Shown here piece by piece: positions 2,903 through 24,878 of a DNA stretch of 64,000 nucleotides. The notes beneath the pieces are model-generated. The model had not been told where the DNA came from. It did no database searches and was given only the letters and a program-made list of their open reading frames with translations. A program made the position numbers and the translations under genes. Origin of the DNA: Candidatus Magasanikiibacteriota bacterium (GTDB lineage: Bacteria; Patescibacteriota; Patescibacteriia; Magasanikbacterales; GWA2-37-8); assembly GCA_041666745.1 (NCBI GenBank), contig JBAYGI010000005.1, positions 7,748-71,747 on the forward strand. Reading direction: 5' to 3'. The number at the start of each line of letters is the position of its first letter. Within the stretch, counting starts at the first letter, position 1.

Positions 2903-3949
2903 TTATTTATTTAGATCTAGAAACGGATTGTGTACCTTTGCATACAATTTGAAGGTGGCAGTTTTTGCCAACTGATCCAAAAATGTTTCCGGGGTTAAGA
3001 AACGGAACAATATATGACGTGCGTGCACTTTTTCCGCTGAAACAGTTTTGCCTTTGGCGTCTTTTGTTTTTTCGATTTTTCTTTCTTCCAATTTTATAAT
3101 GTGATAACCATATTCAGTTTGCACCAAATCCTGAGTGATTTCACTCGCCTTGAGCGCATATACCGCTTTTTCAAATTCCGGCACCATATCCCCTTTTCCA
3201 AACCAACCCAGATCACCGCCGTTGGCTTTGGTACCATCCTCACCGTATATTTTGGCTTCTTCAGCAAAATCTTTACCGGCTTTTATTTCATTTAGCACTG
3301 TCAACGCTTTATTGCGAATTTCTTCCTGAGCTTTTTGGTCACCTTGAATTTTTTCTCCGATTTTTTGTTGTAAAATAAAATTCTTAATTACTTTTTCTTC
3401 ATACTGTGCATAAGTCCAACCATAGCGTTGTTGGATTTCTTTTTCAACTTCCGTCATATCTTTAAACTGTTTCAACAAACTGGCTTTTAGATCTTCTATA
3501 TCTTTCGCTTCTACTTGTACACCGTATTTTATGGCCGCCTCTTTTACTAAAATATTATTGGCCAAACGCCACAAAACTTGATCCGACATTTGTTCGGCGG
3601 TCAAACCGGCAGCGTTACCTTGATTGGCTTTGTCGAAAGCAACCAACTTTTGAATTGCATGCACATCATCGACATAATTCGAATATAATATACTTTCGCC
3701 GTTGACCTTCAATACCGGTAGACACAAAATTCTGGCGACTGTCACGGTAAATTTATCGGTTGCCGCTTTTGCGTATACACGATAAATACCAACTCCGGTG
3801 GAAATTACGATTGCCGCTACCAAAATAGAAACCAAACCGGTTACAAACATTTTCATGTTTTTATTTTCGTCTGATGACTTATGTGTAGCCGAAACCGGCT
3901 CCTCCGCCACTGTTTTTTGTTGTTCCTCCTGAGGAATATTTTGTTCCAT
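2903..3949 (-). CDS. PpiC/parvulin-type peptidyl-prolyl isomerase (PrsA/SurA-like), membrane anchored
   Basis: N-terminal TM helix. C-terminal parvulin domain: …HARHILF…GGDLGWFGKGDMVPEFEKAVYAL…. Confidence 0.7.
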   Translation of the reverse strand: MEQNIPQEEQQKTVAEEPVSATHKSSDENKNMKMFVTGLVSILVAAIVISTGVGIYRVYAKAATDKFTVTVARILCLPVLKVNGESILYSNYVDDVHAIQKLVAFDKANQGNAAGLTAEQMSDQVLWRLANNILVKEAAIKYGVQVEAKDIEDLKASLLKQFKDMTEVEKEIQQRYGWTYAQYEEKVIKNFILQQKIGEKIQGDQKAQEEIRNKALTVLNEIKAGKDFAEEAKIYGEDGTKANGGDLGWFGKGDMVPEFEKAVYALKASEITQDLVQTEYGYHIIKLEERKIEKTKDAKGKTVSAEKVHARHILFRFLTPETFLDQLAKTATFKLYAKVHNPFLDLNK

Positions 3950-6890: not shown

Positions 6891-7009
6891 AAATTATCCA
6901 CTTTAAAAGTTAAGGGCACTTGATTTTTTATTGATTTTATTATATCATTCTTTTTGTTGTTTTGTCTATGCAAAATATACCCTCCTTCGCCAAGGCTATG
7001 GCGGGCAAA

Positions 7010-7082
7010 ATGGGCCGGTAGCTCAGCTGGTAGAGCAGATCCCTTTTAAGGATAAGGTCCCGGGTTCGAGCCCCGGCCGGCC
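7010..7082 (+). tRNA. tRNA-Lys (anticodon UUU)
   Basis: GGGCCGGTAGCTCAGCTGGTAGAGCAGATCCCTTTTAAGGATAAGGTCCCGGGTTCGAGCCCCGGCCGGCCCA. Anticodon loop CTTTTAA. No encoded CCA. Confidence 0.8.
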
Positions 7083-7130
7083 CACTAGAAAAAATACTCC
7101 AACTTGTTGGGGTATTTTTGTATATAATTA

Positions 7131-7263
7131 CGGCCGGGGCTCGAACAAAGGGGTGGTGGGGAAAGTATTTCCCCACATTGCTGAGGAAGGCTTGTGGAAA
7201 CCCGAAGGTTTCCGCAGGAGGATCCGCCGACAGGCGGAGACGACGTTCGCGCCCCGGCCGGCC
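7131..7263. other. structured GC-rich element bounded by an inverted copy and a direct copy of the tRNA-Lys 3' end
   Basis: 7131-7146 (CGGCCGGGGCTCGAAC) is the reverse complement of the tRNA T-arm/acceptor 3' half. 7246-7263 (GCGCCCCGGCCGGCCCAC) directly repeats tRNA 7066-7083. The interior carries GC hairpins (GTGGGGAAAGTATTTCCCCAC, GGAAACCCGAAGGTTTCC, CCGCCGACAGGCGG) in an AT-rich genome. Confidence 0.35.
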
Positions 7264-7316
7264 CACAAAGCAAAAACCCTCCGATTTGATTCGAAGGGTT
7301 TTTCTTTTTTATCTCT

Positions 7317-9314
7317 TTATTTCTCCGGACCAACATGCACACCTATTTTTGCCCCACCGGAAATTGATTTTCCAAAATATGTCAATTCCACATAAGGCGC
7401 ATCTTTTTTGAGGGTGTATTTCTTTTTTATATCAAGCTTCAAAGCTATGTTGGTACTTTTGGCGCCAGTCATTTTCAACCAAACATAGTTGTTGTTATAT
7501 TTAGTAACTTTAAATTGAAAAGCTACTCCACTATAAATAAATGATTTGTTGGTGCAAATAGTATAAACACCATCTACCCCTTTTTCATCAGTACAACTTT
7601 CACTGTATGAATCCTGCAAAGAAGTATTGGAATCTACTTTGAACAACGCCCTACCTTCGGCTCCGACACCAATATAAGTTATAGTCAAATATTTTCCCGG
7701 CTTATTGACAACATAGAAAGTTTCCGGAGTATTTAAAACCAAGTCTGCATCTTCTTCACTCAAGCCTGCGAGCTCTACATTGGCTTCCTCACCATCATTG
7801 CTAATCACTTTTATTTTTGTTCCACTCCAATAGTGATCAATAGCAAAACCATTACAAATCAAAACATTACTATTTCCAGATTTTATATCACTACAAGCTG
7901 GCAAAGGTTTGGTGGTTGGAGAGGAAGTGGCGGTAGTGGCGTAGGAAAAATTTACATAATCAGACCACTGGCCGGTAAAGCCATTTGGAAACATTGGTAA
8001 AACTCTAACTTTAAATTGACCGTCTCCCCATAATGGCGCAGTTTGCAAAGTGTTGGAATAAGTTTTCCATTTCATAACCGCTGACCACAATGGTTGAGAA
8101 CATTTTTCACAAGCTACTTCTACTTGATATTGGTTGGCATTATCTACTTTTTTCCAAATTAAATCCACAATTCGTGGGTAGTTTGTAAGAATAGAACCAT
8201 TGTCTGGTGAAGTAATTGTGGTTTTGGCCATTTCATCAACCCACGGAGTTTTGTTATCATCACTTTTTGGTTTAGCCAAGCAAGTTCCATCCGCACAACC
8301 ATATGGACATTTGTACCACTGAGTATGAACATAATTTTTACCACTGGCAGAACTGCAATGTGTTTCAGCTATAAAATTTCCTGACACTTTATTTTTATCA
8401 CCAATATATATACCACAAGAATCAGGATACACATCATAAGCTCCGGTTAATTCATCGTTACCGGTAGCGATACCAAAAACATTGTAATTTAATTTGTCGG
8501 TTTCTGTACATTTGGCATTTGGAGTAGCAACTGGTTTAATTTTGCACGCTCCTTTAAAACAACCATAATCGCATTTGTACCACTGGTCATGAACTTTGCC
8601 ATAAGAACAATTTTTTTCATCAATATAAGCACCCTCGGATTTTCCTGAATCCCCAACATAATTTCCACAACTATCTTCAAAAGTACCTTTGGATAAACCA
8701 TTTTCTGATTGACCGGTGGCGTTACCAAATACATTGTAATCCAAGCCTTTATCACTTTCACTACAAGCTGGAGTTTCGACGGGAGTTGGAGCCGTCATTT
8801 TTAAACAAGCGCCATTTTCACAACCGTTTTCACATTTATACCACTGGGTATGCACATAGCCATTGGAACAATTACGTTCAGCTATATATGAGCCTTTTTC
8901 TTTATTTAAATCACCTACACTGGCACCACAACTATCATTTACTGTAGCTATCGAAGTTGAACCCTCAATAATACCAGTCGCCCAACTGGAAGTGTAATAA
9001 TCTAATCCACTATCGCCTTCCGTACAACTAATTTTGGTGGCGGTTGCAGAGTCATCACAAGGTTTCCAATTTACATAATATTCAGTATCTGAAGTACATT
9101 TCATGGTATAAAACTGATAACCATACTCGGTTTTTCGACAAGCGGTCGTCAAAACATAAGTAGAATTATCTCTTGTTATCTGAATATCGTTGCCAACTTG
9201 TACACATTTGGTCACAGCTACTGGATTCCCACCAACATCTGGCAAAGCATACGTAGCCACTGGCACTGCCAACAAAAAGGCAAATACCACTAACGAAAGA
9301 AAAATTTTCTTCAT
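7317..9314 (-). CDS. secreted protein with three tandem Cys-rich modules
   Basis: Signal peptide MKKIFLSLVVFAFLLAVPVATYA. Three approximately 95-aa repeats each ending WYKC(E/D/P)xGCxxGxC(L/K)…. Confidence 0.6.
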   Translation of the reverse strand: MKKIFLSLVVFAFLLAVPVATYALPDVGGNPVAVTKCVQVGNDIQITRDNSTYVLTTACRKTEYGYQFYTMKCTSDTEYYVNWKPCDDSATATKISCTEGDSGLDYYTSSWATGIIEGSTSIATVNDSCGASVGDLNKEKGSYIAERNCSNGYVHTQWYKCENGCENGACLKMTAPTPVETPACSESDKGLDYNVFGNATGQSENGLSKGTFEDSCGNYVGDSGKSEGAYIDEKNCSYGKVHDQWYKCDYGCFKGACKIKPVATPNAKCTETDKLNYNVFGIATGNDELTGAYDVYPDSCGIYIGDKNKVSGNFIAETHCSSASGKNYVHTQWYKCPYGCADGTCLAKPKSDDNKTPWVDEMAKTTITSPDNGSILTNYPRIVDLIWKKVDNANQYQVEVACEKCSQPLWSAVMKWKTYSNTLQTAPLWGDGQFKVRVLPMFPNGFTGQWSDYVNFSYATTATSSPTTKPLPACSDIKSGNSNVLICNGFAIDHYWSGTKIKVISNDGEEANVELAGLSEEDADLVLNTPETFYVVNKPGKYLTITYIGVGAEGRALFKVDSNTSLQDSYSESCTDEKGVDGVYTICTNKSFIYSGVAFQFKVTKYNNNYVWLKMTGAKSTNIALKLDIKKKYTLKKDAPYVELTYFGKSISGGAKIGVHVGPEK

Positions 9315-15056: not shown

Positions 15057-15554
15057 ATGCTTCCCAGTTTTCACTTGACCGACCTGTTCTTTTGGGTCGG
15101 ATTTCTTTTCCTTTTGCTCTTCGCGGGATACCATCTCATCATCTCCTGGCTTCGACGAGTGGATTCTTTCTCGAAGATCCAGGGAGACGTGAGTGTTGAA
15201 CGGACAATCCGTCACTTCCTGCGACCGGCCATCCTGACACTCCTAGCTATCACTGCGCTCATTTGCGTCACCATCGGCCAGGGCTCGCAGGCGAGCACGC
15301 AGAACGCCTCGCTCAATCCCGAGATGAAGGTCCGCGACGACTTCGTCAAGGCACAACAGGAGGAAGCCAAGACGGTGACCCCCAAGACTGTGCCAGCGAT
15401 GGAAGCCGAACGGAAACAGGTGGAGGAGACAAAGCGCAAACAGGCGGAGGAAGATGCGCGACGTCGCCAGGAACAGTCCGGCGAGGCGCTCAAGAACTTC
15501 CGCCAGCGAGTCATGGAGCGTGGCATCAATCCAACGGACATCACCACACCGTAG
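15057..15554 (+). CDS. membrane protein (two TM helices plus charged C-terminal tail) in GC-rich island
   Basis: 165 aa with GC3-rich codon usage (island about 60% GC against about 35% in the flanks). Two hydrophobic helices and a Glu/Lys/Arg/Gln-rich tail. Confidence 0.55.
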   Translation: MLPSFHLTDLFFWVGFLFLLLFAGYHLIISWLRRVDSFSKIQGDVSVERTIRHFLRPAILTLLAITALICVTIGQGSQASTQNASLNPEMKVRDDFVKAQQEEAKTVTPKTVPAMEAERKQVEETKRKQAEEDARRRQEQSGEALKNFRQRVMERGINPTDITTP

Positions 15555-15605
15555 CACAGAGCTTCGGTTCGGGTTTCCGTTTTTCAAGACAAGAGGAGAA
15601 TTCAG

Positions 15606-16655
15606 ATGAAGAGCTTTTCGATTCGCGCCGCAATCGCACTGATGGCGGCAATCACTCTCTCCACCCTCGCCGGCTGTGAGGGCTGTACCGGACGGGTTCC
15701 GGGCGGCTACGTCGGCATGGTCATGACCCCGAGCGGGTTTAACGGGGACATCCTTGCTCCCGGCAATCACTCCTGCTACGGCAAAGACAGGATGTACCTG
15801 CTCGAAGTGAGCGACACCCAGAAGGCCGTCGAGATCAACCAGTTGACCACCGACAAGATCAACTTCAAGGCGTCCATCGGAGTGCTTTTCTCGGTGGATC
15901 GTGGCAACAAGCAGGCGATCAAAGACGCGTTCGACAACCTCACGGCGGTGCAAACGGCCGACGCGAAGGTGTTCGTAATCTCCGCCGAGTATCTTTTCAA
16001 GACCTACGTCATGGCGATTGCGGACGAGCAGGGAAGAAAAGTATATTCAAGATACGAATCTTCAGAGGTGGTGTCCAACCGCTCGAAGATTGTCGAGGAG
16101 GTCCGAACCGGAGTCGTGACGGCCTTCCAGAACGGCCTAGTCAAGATCAAGCAGGTCACGGTCAACAACGATGACTTTCCGCACGACGTGAATATGTCTT
16201 GGGAGGCGCGTGCCAGGAAGATCATCGACACCGAGACCGAAAAGGCCGAGCAAACCCGACAACTGATCATCAAGAACAATGAGTTGGCGCTGGAGACACT
16301 CAATTACCAGATCGACTTGGTCAAGGCGGCGAACGTCGCCGACTCGAACAAGATCATCGGCTCGTCCATCACGCCCGAGTATCTGGCATACCAACAGATC
16401 AAGGTCATGGGCGACGCGGCCAAGGGTCCGAACAACTGGGGATTCATCCCCTTCACGGACTATGCCAACGGCAAGGTCAACGGTGGCCCGGCCGACCGCC
16501 TGACAAGCAAAGGTCTGGTCGACGCCGAGCTGATCAAGAGGATTCAGGATGCGCGCCAGAAAGGCGCCGACGCCAAAGCCCAACAGGACAAGGCCAAGGC
16601 ACCCACGGCACCGCCTCCCGCCGATCCTCCGGCGGCCGCTCCTGCCACTCCGTAG
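15606..16655 (+). CDS. SPFH/band-7 domain lipoprotein with Pro/Ala-rich C-terminal tail, in GC-rich island
   Basis: Strong SD AGGAGA. Signal peptide with lipobox LAGC. SPFH-like core. C-terminal …APTAPPPADPPAAAPATP. High GC3. Confidence 0.6.
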   Translation: MKSFSIRAAIALMAAITLSTLAGCEGCTGRVPGGYVGMVMTPSGFNGDILAPGNHSCYGKDRMYLLEVSDTQKAVEINQLTTDKINFKASIGVLFSVDRGNKQAIKDAFDNLTAVQTADAKVFVISAEYLFKTYVMAIADEQGRKVYSRYESSEVVSNRSKIVEEVRTGVVTAFQNGLVKIKQVTVNNDDFPHDVNMSWEARARKIIDTETEKAEQTRQLIIKNNELALETLNYQIDLVKAANVADSNKIIGSSITPEYLAYQQIKVMGDAAKGPNNWGFIPFTDYANGKVNGGPADRLTSKGLVDAELIKRIQDARQKGADAKAQQDKAKAPTAPPPADPPAAAPATP

Positions 16656-16782
16656 ATACTACACTCACCCTCGCCAGCTATCAGGCGTAAGATAGCCGAC
16701 GAAGCTCTTTCCCACCAATACGCCCGGTGACGCGTAAGCGTTCCGGTTCATCCGCCCTGTGCATTTTGTTGGCACGGGGCAA

Positions 16783-24735: not shown

Positions 24736-24878
24736 AAAAATAAAATAATAACTAAAAATAGCTTAATCCGCTAAATTAAGTATATCATTAAAATTAAAAC
24801 TTGAAAAGCGCAAAAAAGTGTGCTACGCTGAGGTTGACAACCCGCCGTCGCTCCTTCGGAGCTATGGCGAGGCGAGGA

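Follow-up and report, generated by a model that had tools for sequence, protein, structure and literature searches.

Phages, integrative and conjugative elements and genomic islands reportedly insert into the 3' ends of tRNA genes by means of a tyrosine integrase, their attP sites carrying the tRNA 3' end. Some small RNAs are carved from tRNA precursors, such as the 3' external transcribed spacer (3'ETS) of glyW-cysT-leuZ in E. coli; RNAs of this kind are short and locus-specific, form no mobile multi-copy family, and exhibit neither a four-way junction nor a copy of the tRNA 3' end. The 64,000-nucleotide stretch of a Candidatus Magasanikiibacteriota genome analysed here (assembly GCA_041666745.1, contig JBAYGI010000005.1, positions 7,748–71,747; hereafter "the window") contains, behind its tRNA-Lys(UUU) gene, a GC-rich block (7131–7266) that recalls both systems. 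As in tRNA-integrating elements, the tRNA gene is intact, the insert brings along a new 3' end and a terminator, a copy of the tRNA 3' end follows in direct orientation, and relatives either have the insert or lack it cleanly; unlike such elements, the block belongs to a unit of 181 nt devoid of an integrase or any open reading frame (ORF), is found behind 17 tRNA isotypes with a repeat of variable length, is missing from viral collections, and possesses an extra inverted copy of the tRNA 3' end that pairs with the direct copy in the RNA fold. With the 3'ETS RNAs it shares its location in a tRNA gene trailer, and several of its homologs abut or lie between tRNA genes and must share their transcript; in contrast to these RNAs, the homologs form a multi-copy family, fold as a four-way junction and carry a copy of the tRNA 3' end. 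Taking all the evidence together, we consider it probable that nucleotides 7128–7266 represent one copy of a family of structured RNA cassettes located immediately downstream of tRNA genes and gained, lost and amplified by homologous recombination, and that these multi-copy cassettes encode small (~120–140 nt) RNAs in Magasanikbacteria and related bacteria of the candidate phyla radiation (CPR).

The tRNA-Lys(UUU) gene (7012–7084, with the end placed at 7085 by ARAGORN; this and all further features lie on the plus strand unless stated otherwise) is intact, does not encode CCA, and matches the Rfam tRNA model with 68.3 bits. The stretch from its T-loop to its 3' end (7064–7085) is copied twice by the arms of the cassette. 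The left arm (7131–7146) matches tRNA positions ~53–68 exactly in inverted orientation, i.e. it covers in complement the T-loop, the 3' strand of the T-stem and 3 nt of the acceptor (16 of 16 nt against 7064–7079). The right arm (7245–7266) is a direct copy of the T-loop through the discriminator plus C, identical to 7064–7085 at 21 of 22 positions (84% identity over 31 nt if extended), whose sole mismatch, A to C at 7250, falls in the loop-derived, cassette-side part, the acceptor part being perfect. A preliminary description of this DNA, made from the sequence alone, had reported both copies; the inverted one agrees to the letter and starts 45 nt rather than 50 nt behind the tRNA, and the direct one extends over 22 nt instead of 18. 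The tRNA and the left arm are separated by a terminator-like hairpin 1 (7090–7119, AAAAATACTCCAAC / GTTGGGGTATTTTT, an inverted repeat with a T-run) and an AT-rich spacer, in which a TATAAT hexamer (7123–7128), read directly from the sequence, is a possible but weakly evidenced -10 box for transcription of the cassette itself. A second terminator-like hairpin with a T-run (7267–7308) follows the right arm; it is apparently bidirectional and would end also the convergent gene on the other side. A bidirectional terminator had been noted there previously (7269–7308); a strict consensus terminator scan called neither this hairpin nor hairpin 1, because both stems hold a mismatch or a G.T pair.

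Could the resemblance of the arms to the tRNA be fortuitous? The T-arm is palindromic, and hence inverted matches to GTTCGAA arise easily. However, a scan for the 16-mer shared by tRNA and left arm, with up to three mismatches, found four matches against 0.15 expected per window by chance, the two arms match at 16/16 and 21/22 positions, and the block has more than 110 homologs with covarying base pairs. Neither ARAGORN nor Rfam finds a tRNA, tmRNA (transfer-messenger RNA) or any other family at the gathering threshold on either strand of 7100–7310, which argues also against a decayed tRNA or tmRNA pseudogene. We therefore regard chance similarity or a pseudogene as extremely improbable. A snap-back inverted duplication around terminator 1 was rejected as well, as the flanks of the hairpin are not mirror images.

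The homologs were collected with a search pattern taken from the most conserved stretch of the block (GAGGANRG N8 AACCCGAAGGTT), which matches at least 119 metagenome contigs and no viral contig. A MAFFT alignment of 57 sequences (A2) was the source of the covariance model R1, which identified 112 distinct copies in 100 sources with E-values from 1e-8 to 1e-28. In the window the model finds one copy, over its full length (7128–7264, cmsearch score 94.2 bits, E = 8e-22). Several loci (L115, L136, L147, L122 and L094) contain 2–3 copies within 10–13 kb; the cassettes are multi-copy and ORF-less. Of the family loci, only three could be assigned to a taxon, namely Magasanikbacteria (two loci) and the "Parcubacteria group" (one). 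A tRNA gene on the same strand ends at most 80 nt upstream of 77 of the 112 copies, with a median gap of 41 nt, and these tRNAs represent 17 isotypes and 33 anticodons; four further copies follow another cassette, and ten lie too near the contig end to tell.

The predicted fold of the window copy corresponds to a four-way junction, in which the left arm pairs with 7245–7260 of the right arm (94%) and encloses hairpins P1 (7155–7177), P2 (7191–7218) and P3 (7223–7238, TCCGCC GACA GGCGGA), in agreement with the several GC hairpins noticed previously between the two copies; the remaining nucleotides of the right arm (7261–7266, GCCCAC) form a 3' tail. The minimum free energy (MFE) on the plus strand is -82.6 kcal/mol, compared to -51.9 +/- 3.8 for shuffled sequences (z = -8.0) and -70.7 for the minus strand. 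P1 and P2 were recovered by RNAalifold from A2, with compensatory changes in 13 of 18 pairs. In the R1 alignment of 111 distinct sequences these helices are 98.3% paired, with compensatory changes in 7 of 8 pairs of P1 and 7 of 10 pairs of P2; double-sided changes occur in 32 of 37 pairs, none of 500 shuffles reached the observed score, and sliding the partner strand reduced pairing from 84% in the true register to 36–52%, the MAFFT alignment giving the same picture. P3 is the variable arm of the family: its length and sequence differ between members, and in A2 it is often a GCGAAGC mini-hairpin. The inner part of the closing helix pairs well. Where the window copy has Watson-Crick pairs, a tandem G.A/A.G interrupts this helix in 53 of 57 members. 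Pairing usually stops near the border of T-stem and acceptor, and therefore the copy of the acceptor is mostly a single-stranded tail rather than part of a full minihelix mimic. A complete acceptor/T minihelix able to attract RNase P, RNase Z or the CCA-adding enzyme was accordingly rejected as a general feature; in a few members (L104, L131 and L200) the closing helix does pair the whole acceptor strand and ends in NCCA.

Several features point to the plus strand. G.U pairs outnumber A.C combinations in P1 (12:3), P2 (19:4; 31:7 for both helices) and the closing helix (185:105), P1 is mostly capped by GNNA loops (~60% of members), and the P2 loop (7203–7206 in the window) is CGAA in 104 of 112 members, with the caveat that it reads as the very stable UUCG on the opposite strand. 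The G.U excess and the GNRA-type loops, together with the terminators located downstream, support an RNA read from the plus strand. One family member (L184, 286–443) has a 43-nt GC-rich insertion exactly inside this otherwise invariant P2 loop.

The junctions of the fold are conserved as well: A2 exhibits nearly invariant UCGAAC, a purine tract before P1, and UUGCYGAGGAAAG. In the window, the J1 purine tract AAAGGGG (7147–7153) mirrors the 5' strand of P1 (GGGGAAA, 7158–7164), and the nearly invariant purine junction J2 (GAGGAAGG, 7183–7190) directly precedes P2. Purines of J2 covary like-with-like with the 5' strand of P2, in antiparallel order (columns 68/76: A:A in 39 sequences, G:G in 17, one exception; columns 67/77: A:A in 53, G:G in 4), and the same type of covariation is seen between J1 and P1 (columns 27/38 and 28/36). 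Triples of the A.A-U and G.G-C type occur in the tRNA core, and the column pattern is suggestive of such triples between the purine junctions and the 5' strands of the hairpins, J1 being a candidate too. A run-length test did not separate mirror from parallel purine repeats, and only the column covariation favours the mirror, i.e. triple, arrangement. An alternative pairing of J2 with the 3' strand of P2 was rejected, as it does not account for the like-with-like covariation.

The orthologous loci were retrieved with the protein encoded on the other side of the tRNA. This translin-family gene (Pfam PF01997, 6318–6890, minus strand) is divergent to tRNA-Lys(UUU), its homologs come from Candidatus Magasanikbacteria (CPR/Patescibacteria), and 57 of the 80 Magasanikbacteria-like loci fetched with it (L002–L081) exhibit the same divergent arrangement. 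The adjacency represents a conserved pairing of a protein from an RNA-binding/RNase family with one particular tRNA gene. In the closest relatives (L002–L007 and L010) the tRNA is followed by a terminator and the next gene, without the block. The alignment of the window with L002, L003 and L004 (A3) reveals a clean gap of 181 nt, behind which the terminator and the downstream gene align again; terminator 2 of the window is thus orthologous to the terminator located directly behind tRNA-Lys in these relatives. Hairpin 1 is absent from the element-free relatives, which indicates that it arrived with the cassette, and it resembles terminators that accompany other family members (L061/L163, L122, L082 and L094). 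More distant relatives (L009, L017, L027, L028, L031, L051 and L061) have a homologous block at the same place. The comparison of orthologous loci proposed in the preliminary description therefore gives a clean indel, in disagreement with the alternative kept in reserve there, i.e. GC-rich similarity by chance in a block that all relatives would share.

Other rearrangements have been noted at the same tRNA gene. In L003 (~1950–2005), which is element-free, two consecutive similar terminator hairpins follow tRNA-Lys, corresponding to a local duplication of the terminator; in L074 a 157-nt tandem duplication including the terminator is located downstream of tRNA-Lys (2267–2340 of that locus, minus strand); and in L019 tRNA-Lys is followed by a short insert and an 18-nt copy of the tRNA 3' end. 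As direct repeats of the tRNA 3' end flank different inserts in L074 and L019, this end appears to be a general recombination hotspot in the clade.

The preliminary description had left two options, an att-like scar of an integrative element and a small stable RNA with a closing helix built from tRNA sequence. The latter is supported by the large family, the covariation of P1 and P2 and the conserved four-way junction. The former has in its favour the clean indel bounded by the direct repeat of the tRNA 3' end, and may be developed into a mini non-autonomous integrative element, with the tRNA 3' end as attP, in which a tyrosine or integron-like recombinase supplied in trans inserts and excises the 181-nt unit. 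The recombinase would read the T-arm dyad or the folded arm hairpin, and the core would be a structured recognition site, not a functional RNA. Such an element would carry its own terminator, as in the classic design of tRNA-integrating elements, and therefore leave the tRNA functional; arrays of cassettes separated by the repeat, the 2x2 G.A/A.G interruption conserved in the closing hairpin, and the frequent GCGAAGC in P3, which is a very stable DNA mini-hairpin, would also suit it. On the other hand, clustering of all 654 ORFs encoded within 4 kb of the cassettes (~100 loci) revealed neither an integrase nor any family recurring in more than five loci, and neither viral contigs nor phage and plasmid collections contain a record of the element, for which reason an origin from a phage or plasmid was rejected. 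The same core is located behind 17 isotypes, each time with that tRNA's own 3' end, which is unlike a single attP and impossible to explain by one; the repeat varies from 10 to 62 nt without a fixed core; in L116 a core devoid of arms lies between two tRNAs; and the GNRA-type loops with the G.U excess argue for selection on RNA. We consider this explanation unlikely, though less so than the other alternatives.

The arms of the cassettes follow the neighbouring tRNA. Nearly all copies contain an exact direct copy (10–22 nt or more) of the neighbour's own 3' end, comprising the 3' strands of the T-stem and the acceptor and the discriminator, plus CCA where the gene encodes it. The left arm corresponds to the complement of the T-loop and T-stem with the neighbour's own variants: at positions 59–60 it agrees with its own tRNA at 1.87 of 2 positions, compared to 1.12 for other tRNAs, and in the T-stem at 3.63 of 5 compared to 2.58, and even the rare TCCGA T-loops are copied in the cassettes of L144, L163 and L170. 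This tracking would be expected also from an element regulating the adjacent tRNA in cis or in trans, in which the left arm is antisense to the T-loop and T-stem, the right arm is a decoy, and the state of the core (bound to a ligand or a protein) locks the left arm or frees it to invade the T-arm of the (pre-)tRNA, blocking its folding or processing. Conserved junctions and a conserved P2 loop are typical for ligand- or protein-binding RNAs, and cassettes that abut their tRNA without a terminator (L131, with a 25-nt repeat behind tRNA-Val-CCA, L112, L198 and L116) must be co-transcribed with it. Nevertheless, a terminator-like hairpin stands between most copies and their tRNA, the left arm is complementary mainly to the generic T-loop, with a match that fades in the acceptor, the closest relatives lack the cassette, and only a minority of tRNA genes bear it (one of five in the window; the core found here, type A, at 7 of the 57 translin-adjacent tRNA-Lys loci), so that a regulatory role of this kind is quite improbable in our estimate.

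A second, unrelated core (type B) is framed by the same inverted and direct arms derived from the tRNA 3' end. It consists of a hairpin GAGCGAGCAAATAGTTTTGCTCGC followed by ...GGCGGTGGCTAG..., and is present at five translin/tRNA-Lys loci and four metagenome loci (L032 1747–1919, L058 2045–2204, L066 2138–2304, L157 739–901, L186 860–1020, and L071, L054, L170 and L167). Both types can be stacked behind one tRNA, type B preceding type A, and each cassette of such an array is followed by another copy of the tRNA 3' end. Tandem arrays (L152) and other configurations bear marks of recombination. The repeat runs over 38–62 nt, through the tRNA trailer and the terminator, in L191, L146 and L144; the second unit of L146 has lost its core, and its generic right arm is followed by a non-tRNA flank, which is what one would expect from unequal crossing-over between the T-arm of the tRNA and the right arm. 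In L122 a cassette with arms of a different tRNA-Glu is inserted between tRNA-Glu(CUC) and the matched cassette, two tRNA-Ser genes sharing a 3' end are followed by near-identical cassettes, and in L009 the right arm ends at position ~67 and continues into an unrelated flank, which looks like the other configuration, as opposed to that of the window.

Multiple copies, tandem arrangement, inverted arms and the lack of an ORF are known also from elements mobilised as structured single-stranded DNA (ssDNA), such as miniature inverted-repeat transposable elements (MITEs), repetitive extragenic palindromes (REPs) or palindrome-associated transposable elements (PATEs), moved by an HUH or other transposase. 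In such a scenario the arms would be terminal inverted repeats and the mirror purine repeats would form intramolecular DNA triplexes; the latter, as well as the GCGAAGC hairpins, do suit DNA structures. But the direct repeat, at 10–62 nt, is too variable for a target-site duplication of fixed length, the arms differ according to the tRNA ahead of them, the elements are located behind tRNAs, no transposase is encoded nearby, and the compensatory changes, loop types and G.U bias indicate selection on the RNA of one strand. We give this explanation very little credence. A related comparison can be made with integron attC cassettes and MITE/REP repeats, which are likewise small ORF-less units with imperfect inverted repeats folding as a hairpin and form arrays with a repeated recombination sequence; they differ from the elements described here, in which the host tRNA 3' end serves as the repeat, a conserved structured RNA takes the place of a gene as cargo, and the covariation is of the RNA type. 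No intI/attI platform or recurrent recombinase was seen near the arrays, which start at tRNA genes; whole genomes were not scanned for them.

Returning to the recombining RNA cassettes, which we prefer, the following series of events can be proposed. Plus-strand transcription would start at a weak promoter belonging to the cassette, or continue into it from the tRNA gene, and stop at terminator 2. The RNA would fold as a four-way junction with the left arm and right arm forming the closing helix, purine-rich junction strands before P1 and P2, and a variable P3; the two tRNA-derived repeats would thus be the two strands of one helix, the right arm in the sense orientation of the T-loop and T-stem, the left arm in complement. 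As the right arm is identical to tRNA positions ~53–68 (in the window save for position 7250), the tRNA body and the right arm could act as two homology arms, and recombination with a naive tRNA gene, by double crossover or gene conversion, would insert the unit comprising the 3' part of the tRNA, terminator 1, the left arm, the core and the right arm. The tRNA gene would remain unbroken, and the acceptor 3' strand and terminator of the recipient would end up directly behind the right arm. Through the same repeats cassettes could be lost precisely, amplified in tandem or stacked with different ones, and occasional crossovers within the near-universal GTTCGAA of the T-loop might carry cassettes to other isotypes, the arms being homogenised later to the new neighbour. 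The window fits such an insertion route, because its mismatch at 7250 is on the side of the cassette, the acceptor part has no mismatch, and of the two terminators the first is foreign and the second resident. As to the cellular function, binding of a conserved partner via the invariant CGAA loop and the purine junctions would be our guess.

A bolder proposal, which we put forward tentatively and regard as less probable than not, is that of protein-free "homing by homology". At least two unrelated RNA cores (A and B), each closed by a sense/antisense T-arm stem, would be moved by homologous recombination in DNA-scavenging, naturally competent CPR bacteria into conserved tRNA genes, without inactivating them, and build arrays there in which copies of the tRNA 3' end separate the cassettes. 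Type A would moreover fold with two runs of purine triples (A.A-U and G.G-C), which would be unusual for an RNA.

A number of observations weigh against the explanation based on recombining RNA cassettes. The promoter scan of the window did not call the TATAAT at 7123–7128, so the promoter would have to be weak, and no sharply positioned promoter motif was found upstream of the left arm in the family, the TANNNT hexamers before other members being loosely placed. The strand and the RNA nature of the product are deduced from statistics of G.U pairs and loops and from the placement of terminators, and the route of recombination from static comparisons of genomes, in which deletion between direct repeats from an ancestral filled site would leave the same empty sites. 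The terminator-like hairpin between the tRNA and most cassettes, including that of the window, is also at odds with it. The tracking of the tRNA by the left arm would need compensatory selection or gene conversion in inverted orientation, the base triples are based on two or three variable columns that could reflect the ancestry of subfamilies, and the search pattern was derived from this very window, with a taxon assigned to only three of the loci it led to. Finally, 21 of the 112 copies have no detectable tRNA upstream, and one of these follows a fragment of a group I intron.

Some of these copies have peculiar surroundings. Cassettes without a detectable upstream tRNA are preceded in L115 (~3440–3470 and 8215–8245), L136 (~4870) and L147 (~3640) by a short conserved motif, GTTCYAACATCRT, behind which come an acceptor-like 3' end and a terminator; in L115 the motif directly follows a protein gene. 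It might mark where a further element tagged with a tRNA end terminates, or else a split or intron-containing tRNA that escaped detection. The group I intron fragment lies just upstream of the cassette in L159 (1–248; Rfam score 38 bits, E = 7e-7) and probably belongs to an intron-containing tRNA missed by ARAGORN. A general connection of the cassettes to such introns was rejected, because the tRNA group I introns of Patescibacteria sit at position 35/36 in the anticodon loop (PMC13011429).

Comparison with described RNA families did not reveal any close relative. At gathering thresholds, Rfam 15 finds only the five tRNAs in the window, and only tRNAs and the intron fragment in 16 family loci, in agreement with the failure of the preliminary description to match the block to the signal recognition particle (SRP) RNA, tmRNA or 6S RNA. 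SRP, 6S and RNase P RNAs were rejected on account of size, the multi-copy and sporadic distribution, and the lack of Rfam matches; a tRNA, tmRNA, permuted tmRNA or tRNA pseudogene was rejected because ARAGORN finds none in 7100–7310 and Rfam, at E-values of up to 10, only tmRNA_permuted with 11 bits, overlapping the real tRNA. The sole non-tRNA match of the region at E-values up to 10 is Clostridiales-2 (RF02937), an orphan small RNA candidate, with 24.8 bits against a gathering threshold of 58.6. Its model resembles the cassette in a purine tract with the P1 hairpin, followed by AGGA.GG and CGAAGG, and differs in having one hairpin and no tRNA-derived arms. Among other members, L116 scores 23.0 bits and ten others not at all, as only variants of P1 with 'GGUGGGGAAAG' match. 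Membership in RF02937 was therefore rejected, since 23–25 bits are far below the threshold and may be due to chance. RNAs with tRNA-like modules (the tRNA-like domain of tmRNA, mascRNA, YrlA, and viral tRNA-like structures) similarly reuse T-arm and acceptor sequence at the end of a larger RNA; the cassettes differ from them by the absence of a T-loop fold and, in most cases, of a minihelix mimic, by not being recognised by ARAGORN or Rfam, and by a mimic that changes with the neighbour. The msr-msd RNA of retrons is also closed by terminal inverted repeats, to which the arms of the cassette are comparable (a1/a2-like); however, the cassette lacks a long msd-like hairpin and is linked to tRNA, and no reverse transcriptase was identified next to it by Pfam analysis of the window neighbours or by clustering of recurrent neighbours. 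No description of the motif sequence or of tRNA-linked RNAs in Patescibacteria or Parcubacteria was found in the literature searchable here. Given that Rfam, the phage and plasmid collections and the literature searched all lack a counterpart, the cassettes may be rated, judging from the sequences, as a putative new kind of element.

The remaining features of the window can be summarised briefly. The cassette is followed by the convergent gene for a 665-aa protein of unknown function (7317–9314, minus strand), and the neighbourhood encodes, besides the translin-family protein, a Mur ligase, MurG and sigma-70. A motif, (G)CTCCTTCG..GGCTATGGCG.G, is shared by the GC-rich 5' leaders of tRNA-Lys (6975–7011) and tRNA-Pro (24815–24878) just before the mature 5' end and might represent a leader hairpin or a processing signal common to both. 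Another region (15193–16763) has a GC content of 60–73% within a genome of 38% GC and has no Rfam match; it overlaps two ORFs (15057–15554 and 15606–16655), the second of which encodes an SPFH/Band 7 protein, so that the region is most likely coding sequence of unusual composition.

If our explanation is correct, the cassettes would represent a new genetic object, namely small structured RNAs whose ends are copied from the tRNA gene ahead of them and which spread and stack without an enzyme of their own; their importance would be smaller should the RNA prove to be a neutral passenger. They would show that in nature homology to conserved genes can by itself direct insertions that spare the gene, and would explain odd duplications of tRNA 3' ends that are otherwise taken for prophage scars. 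For the annotation of CPR/Patescibacteria genomes they would constitute a new abundant RNA family, for which a covariance model has already been made, and the four-way junction with its CGAA loop, purine junctions and possible base triples would be a defined target for structural and functional work.

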